In this document: one piece after another, positions 51,798 to 61,696 of the stretch
Position numbering within the stretch: position 1 is the stretch's first letter
Layout of the letters: the number at the start of each line of letters is the position of its first letter
Source: Trichormus sp. ATA11-4-KO1
GTDB taxonomy: Bacteria > Cyanobacteriota > Cyanobacteriia > Cyanobacteriales > Nostocaceae
Direction: 5' to 3'
Length of the DNA stretch: 62,710 nucleotides
Assembly: GCA_019358915.1 (NCBI GenBank)
Contig: JAHHIM010000027.1
Location: 1-62,710, forward strand
The notes under the pieces: generated by a model
Database searches by the model: none
The model's input: only the letters and a program-made list of their open reading frames with translations
What the model was told of the DNA's origin: nothing
Made by a program: the position numbers and the translations under genes

Positions 51798-51898
51798 TGT
51801 TTCGCGCAAAGGCGCAAAGGCGCGAGTAGTTATTAACATTGTACCAAGAGCTAAGGCAATTGATACTGCTGCGATCGCTAGCAAGTTAATTCAGTAAA

Positions 51899-52630
51899 TT
51901 AATCCTCTTCGTAAAGACTTTCTATGAGATGAATCATTTTTTTTTCACTTATACCTTTCTGAATCTGTTTACCATGTGAGACTTTAACTCTTTCTATCAC
52001 ATCATTTAATGATTTAAACGGCTCTTTATTACGTTCATTTACTACTGCTGATGCTACTTGACTAGCTTTTTTTGAATTAAAGCCAGCTTTAATTAGTTTC
52101 TTAGCAATTTTATCTACATCCAATTTCGTAAACACCTCTAAAGGTTCAACTTTATTAGCTAGTTTTTTGTTAAGCTCCTTATTTTGAGTCTCTAAATAAA
52201 CCTTAGCAGTAGCTTCTTCTAATAATTCCCTAGAAAGTTTTTCAATACGTAATTCTAATTTATTTAAGAAATTTTCAAAATCTTTTGTAGTGAAGTTTAC
52301 CTCTTTTGAACTATCATCTTTTTGTTTTCTAAATATATGAATTTGCTGCGTTAAGTTATCCTCATTTTCAGGCTCAATAATAAATACTCCAATCATTTCG
52401 CCTTTACGAGGATCTATTTCTCTTGCTCTAGCAGCAGCATAGTACTCAAAGTCTCCATCTGCTACCTCGTAGGATTGTAGACTTGTTCTACGAACGACTA
52501 TAGGGTTAATAACTCCCTCAGATTCTAAAATTAACTTAGCAGCCTGTTCTAATTCATCTTCTGCAAAAAGTGAACGAGGTTTGTTGGATATAATTTTTTT
52601 TATAGCAACAAGGGATGTAGACAATTTCAT
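51899..52630 (-). CDS. ParB/Srx-like N-terminal domain + coiled coil + HhH-like C-terminus
   Basis: INPIVVRR..YEVADGDFEYYAA; C-terminal FKSLNDVIERVK..GISEKKM. Confidence 0.75.
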   Translation of the reverse strand: MKLSTSLVAIKKIISNKPRSLFAEDELEQAAKLILESEGVINPIVVRRTSLQSYEVADGDFEYYAAARAREIDPRKGEMIGVFIIEPENEDNLTQQIHIFRKQKDDSSKEVNFTTKDFENFLNKLELRIEKLSRELLEEATAKVYLETQNKELNKKLANKVEPLEVFTKLDVDKIAKKLIKAGFNSKKASQVASAVVNERNKEPFKSLNDVIERVKVSHGKQIQKGISEKKMIHLIESLYEED

Positions 52631-53994
52631 TATATTAATCCTGTTTTTCGTAAAACTTCCATTGCTAATAATTCAAATTCTTGTGCGGCAGTAGAGTCTG
52701 GTTTAAAATCAAGTACAGAAACAGGATCAGCTACTTCCATCTCTCCAATCATTATAAATCTTTCGGCACATTTTGCTAAATCGTCTCTTTCATAAATCAC
52801 TGTATCCATAACGTTAATATCATAACGTTGGGCAATTTTTTCTATTCTATTTTTTAGAGTTGATTGTACAAATTTGGCATTTGTAGATATTTTACAAGCC
52901 AGGACACCCACTATTTCAATAGGTGGTTTCTTAATTTGTTTTCTGAACCCATTAACAGTTTTGACAAACTCCTTGACATTCGTTAATCCCTGATTAGCAA
53001 AGGGTTTTAAATCAGAAGGAATAATCAGATAGTCTGCTGCTATTAATGCAATTCTTGCATAAAGGTTTAAAGAAGGTGGAGTATCGATAAGTACGACATC
53101 ATATTTATCATTAACCTCTTCTAATTTATCAATTAGTATTAGCCTACTATAATCAAGAGCATTCAAATCAGGTTCATTTTTCATTAAATCAATATGTGCA
53201 GGCACAACATGAATTTCTGGATCGCTAAAATTCGATTTTCTAGCTACCTCAGAGATAGGATAAAAGTCCTCTGATTGTAATATATGAAAAATATTAGAGT
53301 CTTTTATATCATCAAATTCTTCATCGTCAAATTTAACTAAACCTGTAGCAAATGTGCTATTAGCTTGACTATCTAAGTCAATTACTAAAACTCTTTTACC
53401 CTTTTTTCTGATGGCAGCAGCTAGATTAACTACAGTTGTTGTTTTACCAACGCCGCCTTTATTATGGTAGACTGCAATTGTTTTCATTACTTTTTGCCTA
53501 TTAGGTTGAATATTTGCATTATTTTCAGATATTTTAATTTCTGACTGATTAATATTTTGCTTTTCTGTCAGACTATCTTTACCAATAAATCCTTTTATTG
53601 CTTCTATCTGTGTTTCAACATCTTTTCCATAGCATTCAAATATTAGTTTAATATCATTTTGTTTTTTTTCATAAATTCTGATTTCCTTGCCATTAGTTAG
53701 CAACCCATATCGCGCATTCAAGCTAGTTAAATAATGCCTAAGTCTGAGGACATGATTATTTAAATTTTGTTTAGGATGCTTTGCTTCCATCACCACACTC
53801 AATGGCGAATTCGCATCTAAAACCAAAGGAATCACTTGTGCGGCAAATGCTAAAAAATCTAAACGGATGCTACCCAGTGCAACCTCTTGATGCCAGGTTT
53901 CCGGAGTATAACCTAGCTGTGGTAGTAAATATTGCACTATGAGTTTGCTTTCTACTTCGCTTTCATTACGGCAAAGCTCAGGATTAAAAGGCAA
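52630..53994 (-). CDS. HsdR_N-like PD-(D/E)xK nuclease domain fused to ParA/Soj ATPase
   Basis: ESEVE..LGY..RLDF..VMEAK..LLTNG, then NKGGVGKTT, IDLDSQAN, IDTPPS. Confidence 0.85.
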   Translation of the reverse strand: MPFNPELCRNESEVESKLIVQYLLPQLGYTPETWHQEVALGSIRLDFLAFAAQVIPLVLDANSPLSVVMEAKHPKQNLNNHVLRLRHYLTSLNARYGLLTNGKEIRIYEKKQNDIKLIFECYGKDVETQIEAIKGFIGKDSLTEKQNINQSEIKISENNANIQPNRQKVMKTIAVYHNKGGVGKTTTVVNLAAAIRKKGKRVLVIDLDSQANSTFATGLVKFDDEEFDDIKDSNIFHILQSEDFYPISEVARKSNFSDPEIHVVPAHIDLMKNEPDLNALDYSRLILIDKLEEVNDKYDVVLIDTPPSLNLYARIALIAADYLIIPSDLKPFANQGLTNVKEFVKTVNGFRKQIKKPPIEIVGVLACKISTNAKFVQSTLKNRIEKIAQRYDINVMDTVIYERDDLAKCAERFIMIGEMEVADPVSVLDFKPDSTAAQEFELLAMEVLRKTGLI

Positions 53995-54368
53995 GTTATT
54001 TACCTCTAAACAGGGAATTGATTTGAGTAAGGAATGCTTAGATGTGTTTAATTATGCCATAGCCTCAATTATTTCAGCCATAATAGTCGCCTTAATTTTA
54101 TGTATAAATATGAAACAATGTAACGTAATATTGCTGAAAAATGAGTTTATTTAAAAACTCTACTAAACCTTTTCCCAGTATTTCTTGAGAAACAAATTCT
54201 ACTGCCAGAATTACACAACTCCAGCCTAGTTGCTATATACTCTATCGAGGCAATATTGCTAATACAACTTTTAAGGTTCCGGAAAAGATTAAATTTAACA
54301 GAAGTTTCAATTGTTCAGCACGGGTGTACGCTACCTAAGTGGGAAAGCGTCATCAGAGGAATCAACCA

Positions 54369-55253
54369 ATGGGATATGTAATTGCTACTGCAAATATGAA
54401 AGGCGGCGTTGGTAAAACTACCCTCACCGTCAACATCGCTACTTGTTTAGCCAAAAATCATGGTAAACGGGTGCTTGTGCTTGATTTAGATAGCCAAATC
54501 AGTGCCACACTTAGTCTGATGTCGCCTTTAGAGTTTGCCAAGCGTCGCAAACAACGAAAGACATTTAGGTATTTGATAGACGAAGTTATCAATCCAGAAC
54601 CAGAAACAAAACTGACGATTCAGGATATTATTCAATCCCAAGTTTGTAGTCTACCTGGACTGAGTTTATTACCAGGAGATATCGACTTATATGATGAATT
54701 TGTTGTGTCAGAAATGCTGCATCAACAAGCAACTGCTTTGGGTGAAAAAGACTTTGAAAGTGTTTGGAATCGCTTTGAAAGAGTCTTGATCAATAACATT
54801 TTAAAACCTGTGCGCCAAGAATATGATTTCATTCTTCTAGATTGTGCACCTGGTTATAATTTATTGACTCGTAGTGCTCTAGCTGCCAGTGATTTTTACA
54901 TTCTTCCTGCTAAGCCAGAACCCTTATCTGTCGTGGGTATTCAACTGCTGGAAAGACGTATTGCTCAATTGAAAGATAGTCACGAACATGAAGCCAAGAT
55001 AGATATTAAAATGCTAGGAATTGTCTTCAGTATGACCAGTTCTAATCTTCTCAATGGTAGATATTATAAACAAGTCATGCATCGTGTTGTTGAGGATTTT
55101 GGCGTAGAACAAATTTGTAAGGCACAAATACCAGTTGATTTCAATGTGGCTAAGGCTGTGGATAGTTTTATGCCTGTTGTGTTAAATGCACCCCAATCAT
55201 CGGGTTCTAAAGCATTTTCTCAGTTGACTCAGGAGTTGTTACAGAAGTTGTAG
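54369..55253 (+). CDS. ParA family ATPase
   Basis: NMKGGVGKTT, LDLDSQ, LDCAPG, KPEPLS. Confidence 0.92.
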   Translation: MGYVIATANMKGGVGKTTLTVNIATCLAKNHGKRVLVLDLDSQISATLSLMSPLEFAKRRKQRKTFRYLIDEVINPEPETKLTIQDIIQSQVCSLPGLSLLPGDIDLYDEFVVSEMLHQQATALGEKDFESVWNRFERVLINNILKPVRQEYDFILLDCAPGYNLLTRSALAASDFYILPAKPEPLSVVGIQLLERRIAQLKDSHEHEAKIDIKMLGIVFSMTSSNLLNGRYYKQVMHRVVEDFGVEQICKAQIPVDFNVAKAVDSFMPVVLNAPQSSGSKAFSQLTQELLQKL

Positions 55254-55391: not shown

Positions 55392-55531
55392 TATATCGAT
55401 TCCCCGTTAAGTGAGGTAAAGAACTAAGTTTTTAAACGCAGAGGGACGCTAAGGTAGCGCAGAGTTACGCAAAGATTGCCCAATTTTATGAGCAATGTAC
55501 TCTGTACTTCAGCCGATTAGGAAACGCTATA
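55392..55531. mobile_element. MITE-like element
   Basis: Imperfect IRs TATATCGATTCC..GAGGTA / TACTTC..GGAAACGCTATA with internal CGCAGAG-type repeats. Confidence 0.55.
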
Positions 55532-55617
55532 TCATTTTTAGGTGTACTATAAAGATAATTATCCCTCAAAGATTTACGATATATAAGCTGTACCTCATTT
55601 ACTTGCAAAGCGCTGTA

Positions 55618-56303
55618 TCACCATTGGCTGAGTACAAGTACGATGTGTCGTGCATTGCAAAAACAAAAACTCACACGAAAAAAAAGACGTTACGCAGCAG
55701 CCAAGCAAAAACTCCAAGAGTCCAAAATTTGAGAACTGAGTATTGGCAGCAAGTCCAACAAATAGACCCAGATGATTTGGTTTTTCTGGATGAAATGGGT
55801 GTTTTACTGGGGTTAACACGAACTCATGCCCGCAGCCCTCATGGAAGTAGAGTGTATGATTGTCAACCATTTTATCGGGGGTCAAAAGTCACAGTCATTG
55901 GGGCAATTAGCACAAAACAAGTTTTAGCTGTGATGACCTTGAATGGTTCAATGGATGGAAACGCATTCAAAGTTTTTATCGAACAGTGTTTACTGCCGCA
56001 ACTATGGCCGGGTGCTGTAGTTGTTATGGATAATCTTCCCGCACATAAAGTCAAAGAAATTGAATCTTTAATTCAATCAAAGGGCGCAAGCATTCTTTAT
56101 CAGTCACCCTATTCTCCTGACTTTAATCCCATTGAACATTGGTGGTCACAATTAAAAGCTTTTCTCCGTTCCTTTTCTCCCACTACTGCCAAAATGGTTG
56201 ACGTTCTCATTGCCACTGCACTCGATTTGATTAATCCCTTGCATTTGAAAAACTGGTTTACAAACTGTTGTTACTGTACCTCATAAACCTGAAATACGCT
56301 GTA
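55618..56303 (+). mobile_element. 5'-truncated IS630-family element (end of orfA, A8 frameshift site, orfB, right end)
   Basis: FLDEMG, VVMDNLPAHK, YSPDFNPIE; right end CCTGAAATACGCTG|TA. The ORF-track N-terminus (55495-55670) is chimeric read-through. Confidence 0.85.
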
Positions 56304-56530
56304 ATTCATACCTTAGATGAAGATAGATTATCTGATCGTAAGTTATTTCCCATTGAGTTAAAAGGTGTAACTTGGTGAGTCGGGTAATCCTGTTAGATGC
56401 TGGACCTGTAGGTTTAGTTACAAATCCAAATCGGTCAAATGAAAGCCTTGCTTGCGCTCAATGGCTACAAATACTCGTTGCTTCTGGTAATCGAGTTATA
56501 ATTCCTGAAATTGCTGACTATGAGGTGTGA
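56304..56530 (+). pseudogene. Remnant TA pair: antitoxin C-terminus (to 56378) and PIN toxin N-terminus (56375-56530)
   Basis: ..LDEDRLSDRKLFPIELKGVTW* overlaps by GTGA with MSRVILLDAGPVG..IPEIADYEV*. Confidence 0.75.
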
Positions 56531-56572
56531 CTGGAGTTGAAGTGTACGCTACAATACACGTCCATTACATTT

Positions 56573-56989
56573 TTAATCTTGCCGCAACAATGCTATAAAC
56601 CCTGCTTGAACAAAATGTATATCAGCCGTGGCTGCATAAATTAACTCTTGATCCTGCATGACAATAAAGGATATACAGTCTGTTAAACCCCAATTTTTAT
56701 CTTGACGATTATCATAGAGTTGCAGCGAACGAATAAAAAGTGGAGTATCTACACTGATAACCTTAATATTATCTGTTTGATAACACTGATTAATAAACGA
56801 AACTGCTGCTGCTCGGTTAACTGAACTTAAAGCATTAGCAACTTCTATTAAAACTGCTTCAGTTACCCATACTTCAAGAGCATTCTTCACTCTTGGTAAT
56901 AATGTTTTAGCTTGATTATGATATTGATCATTTTTGTTCAGTAGAGCCTGAATAAATACTGTATCTAAAAAGATTTTATCTTCATTCAT
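56573..56989 (-). CDS. PIN-domain VapC-like toxin
   Basis: FLDT..D.YH, VLIE, LTDCISF, TADIHF. Confidence 0.92.
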   Translation of the reverse strand: MNEDKIFLDTVFIQALLNKNDQYHNQAKTLLPRVKNALEVWVTEAVLIEVANALSSVNRAAAVSFINQCYQTDNIKVISVDTPLFIRSLQLYDNRQDKNWGLTDCISFIVMQDQELIYAATADIHFVQAGFIALLRQD

Positions 56990-57231
56990 TCTATATTTTT
57001 ACTGTCATCTTTAGGCGTACCATACAGATAGTAGTCATGTTGACTAGACCAATCATTTGGCGCTTCAACTGTGCCGGTTAGTGCTTCTAATACATCCCAA
57101 GCATTACCATTAGGCACTGATTCAAGAGCAGATTCAATTTTAATGATATAACGCTTGTTCGGTTCTAAATTTAAAGGTAAATCTGGACGTAAAAATTGAC
57201 CATCAAATGTAACTATTAATGTCTCACTCAT
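56986..57231 (-). CDS. Putative antitoxin
   Basis: TFDG..LRPD..L, HDYYLYG. ATGA overlap with the toxin. Confidence 0.8.
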   Translation of the reverse strand: MSETLIVTFDGQFLRPDLPLNLEPNKRYIIKIESALESVPNGNAWDVLEALTGTVEAPNDWSSQHDYYLYGTPKDDSKNIE

Positions 57232-57351
57232 AATTTTGTATGATAAGTATTTACTATTTAATCTTACTACTTGTATATTGATCCGAGCAGCAAAACCCAA
57301 CGCTTCACTAGAAAACGCTGGGTTGCATTCAAACCGGGGTATTTCTACTTT

Positions 57352-60267: not shown

Positions 60268-60322
60268 AGTCTCATGCCTAAGATTATATGTGCAGGTTAT
60301 CCAATCAATTATAGAAGATGGC

Positions 60323-60673
60323 ATGATTCCCCAAAATTCTTTGCTGCCCAATGCCGAAAATGCAATTGTTGATATTCGTAAACTGCGTGACTACAGCCTT
60401 AATCCAAACCATCCTACAGGTAAGGATAAAGCCCGTCTTTTTTCCTCTATTTTGGGGATAACTGCTGATAATGCTGAAGAATTGCGTCAAATTATTTTGG
60501 CAAAAGTCAAAACTCAAGCAGTTAGCTTAAATCGGTGTGATGAGTTTGGGCAACGTTACACACTGGATTTTACTCTGTAATGGCAAAATAGAAGTGCAAC
60601 TATCCGCACTGGTTGGATAATTCAACCTGATAGTGATATTCCCAGATTAACCAGTTGCTATCCTTTGTTGTAA
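60323..60673 (+). pseudogene. DUF6883-like protein with internal TAA stop (60578-60580)
   Basis: KLRDYSLNPNHPTGKDKARLF..FGQRY; frame continues WQNRSATIRTGWII..PRLTSCYPLL*. Confidence 0.8.
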
Positions 60674-60692
60674 TATCTGGAGGCTATGCGAA

Positions 60693-60941
60693 ATGAATCA
60701 AAGCACACCCAAGTTGCTGGATATAGTGGCACTGACAGAAGATATACCCGAATATAATTTATTGCGCGGTCAAGTCGGGACAATCGTGGAAATGTTAGCC
60801 GATGGTGCTGCATTTGAAGTAGAATTTAGCGATCGCAATGGACAAACCTATGAATCTATTGGTTTACGTCCAGAACAAGTTATGGTGTTACATTTTGAAC
60901 CAGCAGACCCTAATTTAAAGCCGGAAATAGTCACAGTGTAA
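60693..60941 (+). CDS. DUF4926 family protein
   Basis: LLDIVAL..L.RGQVGTIVE..FEVEFSD..G.TY. Confidence 0.88.
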   Translation: MNQSTPKLLDIVALTEDIPEYNLLRGQVGTIVEMLADGAAFEVEFSDRNGQTYESIGLRPEQVMVLHFEPADPNLKPEIVTV

Positions 60942-61004
60942 TTAATTATAGCTCAATAGCTGAATGTTACGATCATTGATATTTACCGAATTGGCATTAA
61001 CTCG

Positions 61005-61250
61005 ATGAGTCTATCACTAGAAAAAATGTTCAGCGAGATTGACCAACTGACCCCAGAAGAACAATTAACGGTGATGGGGTATTTAGTAGAACGGATGAAA
61101 CAGCACGTCATTCAAGTACAATCAAAACGCAAATGGAGTGATTTAAAGGGTATGGCTTCATATCCATTATTAGGTAAAGATGCTCAAGAGTGGGTTTCTC
61201 AGACTAGACGGGAAGGAGATGACCATCGCTCAAGCTTGTTAAGCGAATAA
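61005..61250 (+). CDS. Putative antitoxin
   Basis: G.DAQEWVS..R motif, directly upstream of a PIN gene. Confidence 0.78.
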   Translation: MSLSLEKMFSEIDQLTPEEQLTVMGYLVERMKQHVIQVQSKRKWSDLKGMASYPLLGKDAQEWVSQTRREGDDHRSSLLSE

Positions 61251-61252
61251 CA

Positions 61253-61696
61253 ATGAAGATTAGTGAGGCATTAATAGGAGTTTTTCATATATTTATTGAT
61301 ACAGCACCAGTTATTTATTTTGTAGAGCGCAATCCGCAATTTGTGAATTTAGTAGATCCAATTTTTGAAAGATTGGAAACTGATATTACAGCAGTAGTAT
61401 CTCCAATAACATTGTCTGAATGTTTGGTGGGTGTTAAGCGTTTAGGATTAACGGATTTAGAGGAAGCTTTTGTTGATGTATTGCTAAGTAATGAAGTGGT
61501 TTTTGTAGATATTAATGCTGCTATTGCGCGAGAAGCTGCGAAAATCAGATTACTTTACAATGTACAGTTACCTGATGCTTTACAAGTGGCTGTAGCTTTA
61601 ACAAATAATTGTGATGCTTTTTTAACTAATGATCTAACTCTAAAGCGAGTAACAGAGTTGAGAATATTGGTAGTAAGTGATTTACAAGTAGGGTAA
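61253..61696 (+). CDS. PIN-domain VapC-like toxin
   Basis: FIDTAPVIY, TLSE, LPDALQ, FLTND. Confidence 0.92.
   Translation: MKISEALIGVFHIFIDTAPVIYFVERNPQFVNLVDPIFERLETDITAVVSPITLSECLVGVKRLGLTDLEEAFVDVLLSNEVVFVDINAAIAREAAKIRLLYNVQLPDALQVAVALTNNCDAFLTNDLTLKRVTELRILVVSDLQVG

Follow-up and report, generated by a model that had tools for sequence, protein, structure and literature searches.

In the cyanobacterium Trichormus sp. ATA11-4-KO1, a nuclease fused to a ParA-type ATPase is encoded together with a degenerate ParB partner, and judging from sequence this pair is a member of the effector-ParAB kind, a family whose existence has already been predicted in print. We think, with a probability of about 0.65, that the two genes form a conflict cassette of that kind, in which an ATP-gated nuclease is predicted to act against invaders (phages or plasmids). 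The initial annotation had read the locus not as a segregation system but as a nuclease under ATP control that has a DNA-binding partner; this reading has gained support from the invariance of the catalytic residues and from a patchy, mosaic distribution, the defence role itself being predicted. The window analyzed is a stretch of 62,710 nucleotides (contig JAHHIM010000027.1), to which all positions refer; the nearest proteins to those that it encodes are from Halotia, Mojavia, and Nostoc.

Architecture of the two proteins

Gene A (52630..53994, minus strand) encodes 454 amino acids, comprising an HsdR_N-like PD-(D/E)xK restriction endonuclease (REase) head, a flexible linker, and a ParA ATPase; its start codon is TTG, with AGAGGT upstream. 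The nuclease head (53575..53994, minus strand, aa 1-140) was delimited by the Pfam HSDR_N_2 match, secondary structure, and residue conservation. HSDR_N_2 covers aa 17-113 (E 4.7e-6) with 27.1 bits against a cut-off of 25. The typical core of PD-(D/E)xK nucleases has the order helix-three strands-helix-strand, and the model of the head presents such a core, bearing E15, D46, E70, and K72 and followed by a disordered linker. A comparison of the head with PDB sequences gave no real match, and in whole-model fold searches of gene A the ParA domain took up the lists; the head is assigned to its fold from motifs and secondary structure. Compared with HsdR_N heads and with heads fused to N-6 methylases in eight plasmid records, it shows 27-44% identity.

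The ParA/Soj-type ATPase domain (52633..53487, minus strand, aa 170-454) is matched by AAA_31 over aa 170-349 (E 1.4e-56), and the model of gene A superimposes on the ParA structure 8ray with Z 32.4 and rmsd 2.2 over 255 aligned residues. Every motif of gene A is intact: E11/E13/E15, D46, E70-A-K72, and LLTNG in the head, and Walker A (KGGVGKTT), DxDxQ, and Walker B (DTPP) in the ATPase. The fusion of an HsdR_N-like domain to an intact ParA, as initially annotated, is thus borne out by two Pfam matches, that of the head being above its cut-off, and by the complete set of motifs. Gene A also carries the marks of the PriB1/ConB1 clades, namely N178 (the Asn before Walker A), V182 (the Walker A Val), and D206-x-D208-x-Q210; these marks, which are weakly diagnostic, recur in the fused relatives (V and Q in 86/86, N in 70/86 with His in the other 16). 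With a pI of 5.3 the ParA domain is acidic as a whole, so its own binding to DNA is not assured. Its identity to the adjoining core ParA is about 26%.

Gene B (51899..52630, minus strand) encodes 243 amino acids, in which a degenerate ParB fold is followed by a coiled coil and a helix-hairpin-helix (HhH)-like tail. The ParB-fold domain (52316..52630, minus strand, aa 1-105) is recognized by ParB_N above the cut-off (aa 12-69, E 4.8e-8), and its predicted fold resembles KorB (8qa8; Z 10.4, rmsd 2.9, 91 aligned). Aligned with the other ParBs of the same genome, gene B has GDFE in place of GERR and its ENLxREDL box is gone; hence the GxxR CTP motif is replaced just as initially annotated, and the ENxxR box is missing in addition. 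The conserved polar residues of the partner are kept among 50 loci, E62 in 48 and E71, E78, and Q96 in all of them. Besides a long helix of 44 residues (115-158), the AF2 model contains a basic tail (51914..52153, minus strand, aa 160-239; pI 9.2), the fastest-evolving module of the pair. HHH_6 matches it at aa 190-217 below the cut-off (E 6e-4), and its model resembles KIF22 (Z 7.1, rmsd 2.4, 67 aligned) and ComEA (Z 6.6, rmsd 2.3, 60 aligned), all middling values. The coiled coil and HhH-like tail that had been proposed to take the place of an HTH are therefore reproduced by the model. Among the relatives the tail is swapped for a ComEA-type HhH (HHH_3, E 6e-11, L108) or for Rho_N (E 4e-6, L113).

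Genes A and B share one base at position 52630, and the TAATG overlap behind the claimed translational coupling is present in the sequence. The distance between both genes stays within -3 to +6 in 50/50 paired loci, with one shared base in 30 of them. A promoter and terminator scan of the locus did not rise above chance level.

Conservation and distribution in cyanobacteria

The residues D46, E70, and K72 of the nuclease and K179, K184, D206, D208, Q210, and D304 of the ATPase are invariant in all 86 fused relatives (51 near, 30 far from other families, and 5 very divergent), a sample that was picked by HMM score and may favor conserved members. This invariance indicates that both enzymes are under selection. 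In the partner, GxxR occurs in 0/98 parsed sequences (76 GxxE, 16 GxxW) and ENxxR in 0/100, which indicates an early loss of the CTP motifs. The partner is found in 83/151 genomes of the family (77/137 of those with good quality), whereas the core parA beside the pair is present in 145/151; in 22/44 genera with several genomes its presence is mixed. Phylum-wide it occurs in 81/401 genomes; the last twelve families, taken as a pool, contribute 2/225. Related genomes and loci are not independent of each other in these or in any other counts given here. Two findings that would have spoken against the initial annotation, nuclease residues that vary among homologues and a strictly vertical core distribution, are contrary to what we observe.

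At a threshold of E up to 1e-10, the profile of the partner domain collects 677 clusters at 50% identity. A complete A+B pair exists outside cyanobacteria in Desulfonema magnum, and a search of gene B against 72,556 plasmids (PLSDB) gave no match. The pair is chromosomal, mostly at one conserved site. In one genus the partner is present in 19/19 genomes with two or three matches each; in five mapped loci of this genus (L165, L166, L169, L198, L199), two distinct degenerate ParB partners stand in tandem after gene A, one with an HhH-like tail and the other with a Rho_N-like tail.

Gene A is fused in 52/61 near loci. The 80 named loci divide into 61 fused, 11 with a head-less ParA, 4 split, 1 with the head only, and 3 with neither head nor ParA, the last having a short upstream flank. 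The head-less ParA before the partner in 11/80 loci suggests that the nuclease is dispensable in some lineages. In four loci (L087, L088, L090, L181) a pentapeptide-repeat gene precedes the head-less ParA and the partner. In two others (L182:2813-6010, L179:6374-7945), a ParA of the same clade carries an N-terminal fusion of a nuclease-like domain with a UPF1-like SF1 helicase, and the partner is still coupled. A third gene follows gene B in 13/61 near loci (e.g., L055:4947-5645) and is absent from the Trichormus sp. ATA11-4-KO1 genome; it has an N-terminal winged-helix/Z-alpha-like domain (weak Pfam match; ZorC model, E 2e-6 over 40 aa), a low-complexity linker, and a C-terminal hydrophobic segment.

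A chromosomal site shared with an FtsK operon

The pair occupies a variable slot (51826..54265) flanked on one side by a GT2 gene and on the other by the core parA-like gene (54339..55253, plus strand). The latter is divergently oriented, belongs to the flank and not to the pair, and has no ParB partner. Homology to a relative (L091) ends at about 51825 and begins again at about 54266. Most near copies of the pair likewise lie between core parA and a glycosyltransferase cluster. Among relatives, the slot is taken by the A+B pair, by divergent alleles of the pair, or by an operon of three genes, for a wHTH protein, a P-loop ATPase, and a protein joining 3'-5' exonuclease, PD-(D/E)xK, and FtsK domains. 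In 40 genomes that were chosen from the best core-parA matches and lack a strong match to gene B, the slot contained this operon in 30 cases and operon remnants in 1, very divergent A+B pairs in 5 (about 32% identity in the head), the head plus a truncated ParA in 2, a partial exonuclease gene in 1, and none of these in 1. The operon (L063:187-5879, L091, L093-L103, and others) lies upstream of core parA and is co-oriented with it.

The operon ATPase was found in 82/151 family genomes. Partner and ATPase occur together in 24 genomes, the partner only in 59, the ATPase only in 58, and neither in 10; moreover, 18 genera hold one genome of each kind. The A+B pair thus largely excludes the wHTH-ATPase-exonuclease/REase/FtsK operon from the slot, and the wHTH and ATPase genes are lost from the Trichormus sp. 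ATA11-4-KO1 genome. By domain content, on which the likeness is drawn, the operon fits the 'capture' neighborhoods of Orc/CDC6, REase, and exonuclease-FtsK that the consulted part of PMC10853773 predicts as defense.

At the right edge of the swapped segment (51800-51878 of the window) lie a short repeat rich in GC (GCGCAAAG units) and, just past the gene B stop, a HIP1 site (51871-51878), a possible recombination boundary. Farther away (55495-57300 and 60290-61696), ileS is flanked by an ORF for an IS630-like transposase and by several toxin-antitoxin-like pairs of the PIN type, identified by eye from their motifs, which suggests that the wider region gathers accessory genes too.

The pair is AT-rich (GC 0.324 against 0.417 for the genome, within the lowest 0.5% of 11,669 genome windows) and free of HIP1, as first remarked, although neither trait carries weight as a supporting hint. 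Its GC is below that of the own core parA in 39/39 relatives compared, and 18% of genome windows of the same size also have no HIP1, so that these traits do not date its arrival. Across the whole window 45 HIP1 sites were counted against 0.2 expected; in the pair, 50 loci together have 4 sites where about 68 would be expected, and core parA, although vertically kept, has 0 sites in 34.8 kb (39 orthologues). A recent import deduced from AT-richness and missing HIP1 was consequently rejected: the first is a family trait and the second is not significant by itself. The claim that no hsdM/hsdS or methylase gene is nearby agrees with a crude motif scan, which detected no catalytic motif of DNA methylases in the ORFs of the window or in 101 neighborhoods.

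Exchange of modules and selection

Tree-distance correlations over 39 loci with all modules are 0.71 for core gene and head, 0.88 for ParA and ParB-N, 0.24 for head and ParA, and 0.21 for ParB-N and tail. The head tracks the core gene and ParA tracks the ParB fold, with the head nearly decoupled from ParA and the ParB fold from its tail. In topology tests each module's own tree is favored by construction, and the informative measures are the size of the likelihood drop and these distance correlations. A genome of the same genus (L060) illustrates the pattern: identity to the Trichormus sp. ATA11-4-KO1 locus is 85-98% in the flanking genes, 87-95% in the head, and 48-71% over the remainder of the pair, starting with the linker, which makes the two loci a natural allele swap.

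Median pairwise dN/dS, calculated by simple NG86 on non-independent pairs, rises from 0.080 in the core gene and 0.087 in the head to 0.144 in ParA, 0.237 in the ParB fold, and 0.565 in the tail. Split or truncated copies exist (L046, L063, L122, L128, L179, L180), some of which may be assembly errors. Two of them (L128 and L122) have kept an intact-looking head and lost most of ParA and gene B.

Predicted complex, mechanism, and rival readings

ParA and ParB are a textbook pair of interacting proteins. A complex model of two ParA domains, two ParB-N domains, and ATP scored 0.62, compared to 0.00 for the best of three controls; the mark used was reached by 116/157 solved and by 2/215 mismatched pairs. 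At least 83% of the contacts agree between runs, and the pLDDT of the partner is at least 86. In the predicted interface, residues 4-9 and 75-84 of gene B would face residues 240-244 and 275-282 of gene A. The model, which comprises the ATPase and not the nuclease head, supports binding between ParA and ParB-N, with the reservation that likeness to solved ParA/ParB complexes may contribute to the score.

Building on this interface, we propose that gene B works as a CTP-independent adaptor, which has kept the ParB fold without the CTP switch and would dock on the ATP-bound ParA dimer. Its coiled coil would make gene B a dimer, whereas its basic HhH tail may bind DNA without sequence specificity and serve as a sensor of invader DNA structures. 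Dimerization and loading of ParA would then bring two PD-(D/E)xK heads together on DNA, and the paired heads would be permitted to cleave the DNA of an invader or, as an abortive last resort, that of the host. Given that no methylase was found, the cell would protect itself not by modifying its DNA but by leaving the nuclease unassembled. The heads that outlast ParA and gene B in L122 and L128 suggest activation driven by assembly and not by release of an antitoxin.

Several lines count for the conflict-cassette reading, namely the published prediction, the invariant residues, the patchiness and mosaicism, the complex model, the alternation with an operon itself predicted as defense, the variable heads and tails, and the Desulfonema magnum copy. 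Against it count the head-less ParA loci, the lack of a plasmid match, the acidic ParA, and the lack of a PADLOC model, together with a stability greater than that of most defense cassettes, as indicated by the fixed chromosomal site, the 19/19 genus, and a head that tracks the core gene and is under strong purifying selection. These last traits are also what recommends a role in nucleoid maintenance, which we consider rather unlikely: in polyploid or filamentous cyanobacteria, ParA and gene B would patrol the nucleoid, the nuclease would resolve branched, trapped, or damaged DNA, and the FtsK/nuclease operon would be interchangeable with the pair and do the same job. That 141/151 family genomes have either the partner or the operon ATPase is expected if one of them is needed, and the fixed site beside core parA and the head dN/dS of 0.087 point the same way. 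However, 10 family genomes have neither module; allele swaps between close relatives, a fast tail, and alternative heads and tails are atypical of housekeeping genes; and split or truncated copies exist, with the caveat on assembly errors already given.

Two further readings fit poorly. If gene A were a constitutive nuclease toxin held off by gene B, as in a selfish toxin-antitoxin-like addiction module, one would expect the tight coupling seen here (shared base in 30/50, gaps of -3 to +6 in 50/50), the negative crude scan for methylases, and the predicted direct contact of both proteins. But loss of gene B with the head kept, as in L128 and L122, would be lethal if gene B were the antitoxin and the head were expressed (two cases); the predicted contact is on the ATPase, though in a model from which the head is absent; and gene B has no plasmid match, so we regard addiction as very unlikely. 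Still further from the evidence, in our opinion, is a variant ParABS or McdAB-like partition or positioning system with a vestigial nuclease head, which we hold to be scarcely credible. The parA-parB order, the intact ParA, the ParB fold, and the existence of head-less versions would suit it, but the CTP boxes are lost, there is no HTH, and the nuclease catalytic residues are invariant. With the one parS consensus searched, 1 site carrying 2 mismatches was detected, compared to 3 such sites with the reversed control. Separate ParBs that retain GxxR are encoded beside ParA genes on other contigs of the genome (C70, C39, and C48).

A candidate phage counterpart and its significance

The domain of gene B has a weak tblastn match (E 7e-4) to ORF27L of Anabaena phage A-4L, and the family profile matches the product, gp27 (NC_024358 ORF27L; L201:1044-6197), with 35.8 bits at aa 1341-1406; Pfam finds nothing on this ParB-like segment. 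Gp27 is an ejection protein that touches the packaged DNA (PMC12002296), a source in whose consulted part ParB is not mentioned. A protein of an IMG/VR contig (L202:3845-5122), encoded near a transglycosylase-like gene, contains two copies of the domain. In a tree with a long gp27 branch and a small outgroup, the phage domains fall together with the host family and are separated from four canonical ParBs (99/96). Long, phage-like-looking proteins with tandem degenerate ParB copies were also noted (P0241, P0243, P0245, P0247, P0301); a viral search with P0243 gave no match.

These matches allow a speculative extension of the conflict-cassette reading, unlikely as we judge it, in which the cassette is a reprogrammable anti-phage nuclease and the ParA-ParB interface the site of an arms race. 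A cyanopodophage would inject, along with its DNA, an ejection protein bearing a degenerate ParB copy, which would dock on the nuclease-ParA as a decoy or a trigger. The host might reply with new alleles of ParA and ParB-N behind a constant nuclease head, or by exchanging the cassette for the FtsK capture operon. The gp27 domain might just as well be a generic module for DNA handling, borrowed by phages.

The locus offers a compact two-gene case in heterocystous cyanobacteria, with clear catalytic residues, a natural allele series, a predicted interface, and this candidate phage counterpart. If the conflict-cassette reading is true, a partition machine has been turned into an ATP-gated, methylase-free nuclease defense in which a ParB fold works without CTP. 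If the pair is not a defense system, the one-or-other pattern of the slot would indicate a need for nucleoid maintenance in filamentous cyanobacteria.

Comparison with known systems

With the ParABS systems (Soj/ParA, Spo0J/ParB, Noc, KorB, PadC), the pair shares the ParA fold and motifs, including an intact Walker-type ATPase, the ParB N-terminal fold, the gene order, and the predicted contact. It differs from them in having neither GxxR nor ENxxR, no central HTH according to the model, no recognizable LG(R/K)GL peptide, and a nuclease head on ParA. The head is like that of Type I HsdR and Type IIG enzymes (HSDR_N_2, D..ExK, TNG, and 35% identity to N-6 methylase-fusion heads). Unlike these restriction-modification systems, however, genes A and B contain neither an SF2 motor nor a methyltransferase with a specificity subunit; HsdM, HsdS, or a nearby methylase motif did not appear in the crude scan, and the ATPase is a ParA.

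PADLOC, one of the initially proposed checks, has no model for the pair: gene B had no match, and gene A had a weak match to PDC-M28B. Membership in this candidate defense protein model was rejected, since the match (E 9e-12) extends over no more than the Walker A region of ParA, leaving out the head, and the unrelated core parA matches as well. Literature on PDC-M28, on nuclease-ParA fusions, and on anti-phage ParA-like ATPases gave no match to the A+B system, nor is the pair described in the consulted parts of 10.1101/2025.10.10.680097 (0 occurrences of REase and HhH), PMC12839542, and PMC10853773.

The effector-ParAB system (ConB1 clade) is a predicted bacterial immune system (Li, Burroughs, Aravind, bioRxiv 10.64898/2026.10.19.760177, 22 Oct 2026). 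According to the consulted part of this preprint, it consists of an operonic ParA-ParB with an inactive ParB that keeps conserved polar residues, a variable enzymatic effector before ParA, most often a REase, and an HhH or Rho-N HeH after the ParB in place of the HTH; it is enriched in cyanobacteria and other multicellular taxa and is predicted to coat or cut invader DNA. The Trichormus pair has the same coupling (TAATG, gap of -3 to +6 in 50/50) and an N-terminal effector (HSDR_N_2 with D/E/K in 86/86, and a helicase-containing alternative head in L182). Its ParB is likewise inactive by motif (GxxR 0/98, ENxxR 0/100) with polar residues kept, and is followed by a weak Pfam HhH with fold Z of 6.6-7.1, replaced by HHH_3 in L108 and Rho_N in L113. 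The marks N178, V182, and DxDxQ agree too, and against this part of the preprint we found no difference in kind. The word 'uncharacterised', used in the initial annotation, therefore does not stand as regards print, the published prediction covering the pair, and does stand in the experimental sense. Besides what the preprint's figures and supplements may already list, including the clade itself, we think that the present analysis contributes the fixed slot with its FtsK-operon exchange, the recombination of three modules, the helicase-fused head, and the copy of the domain in a phage ejection protein.
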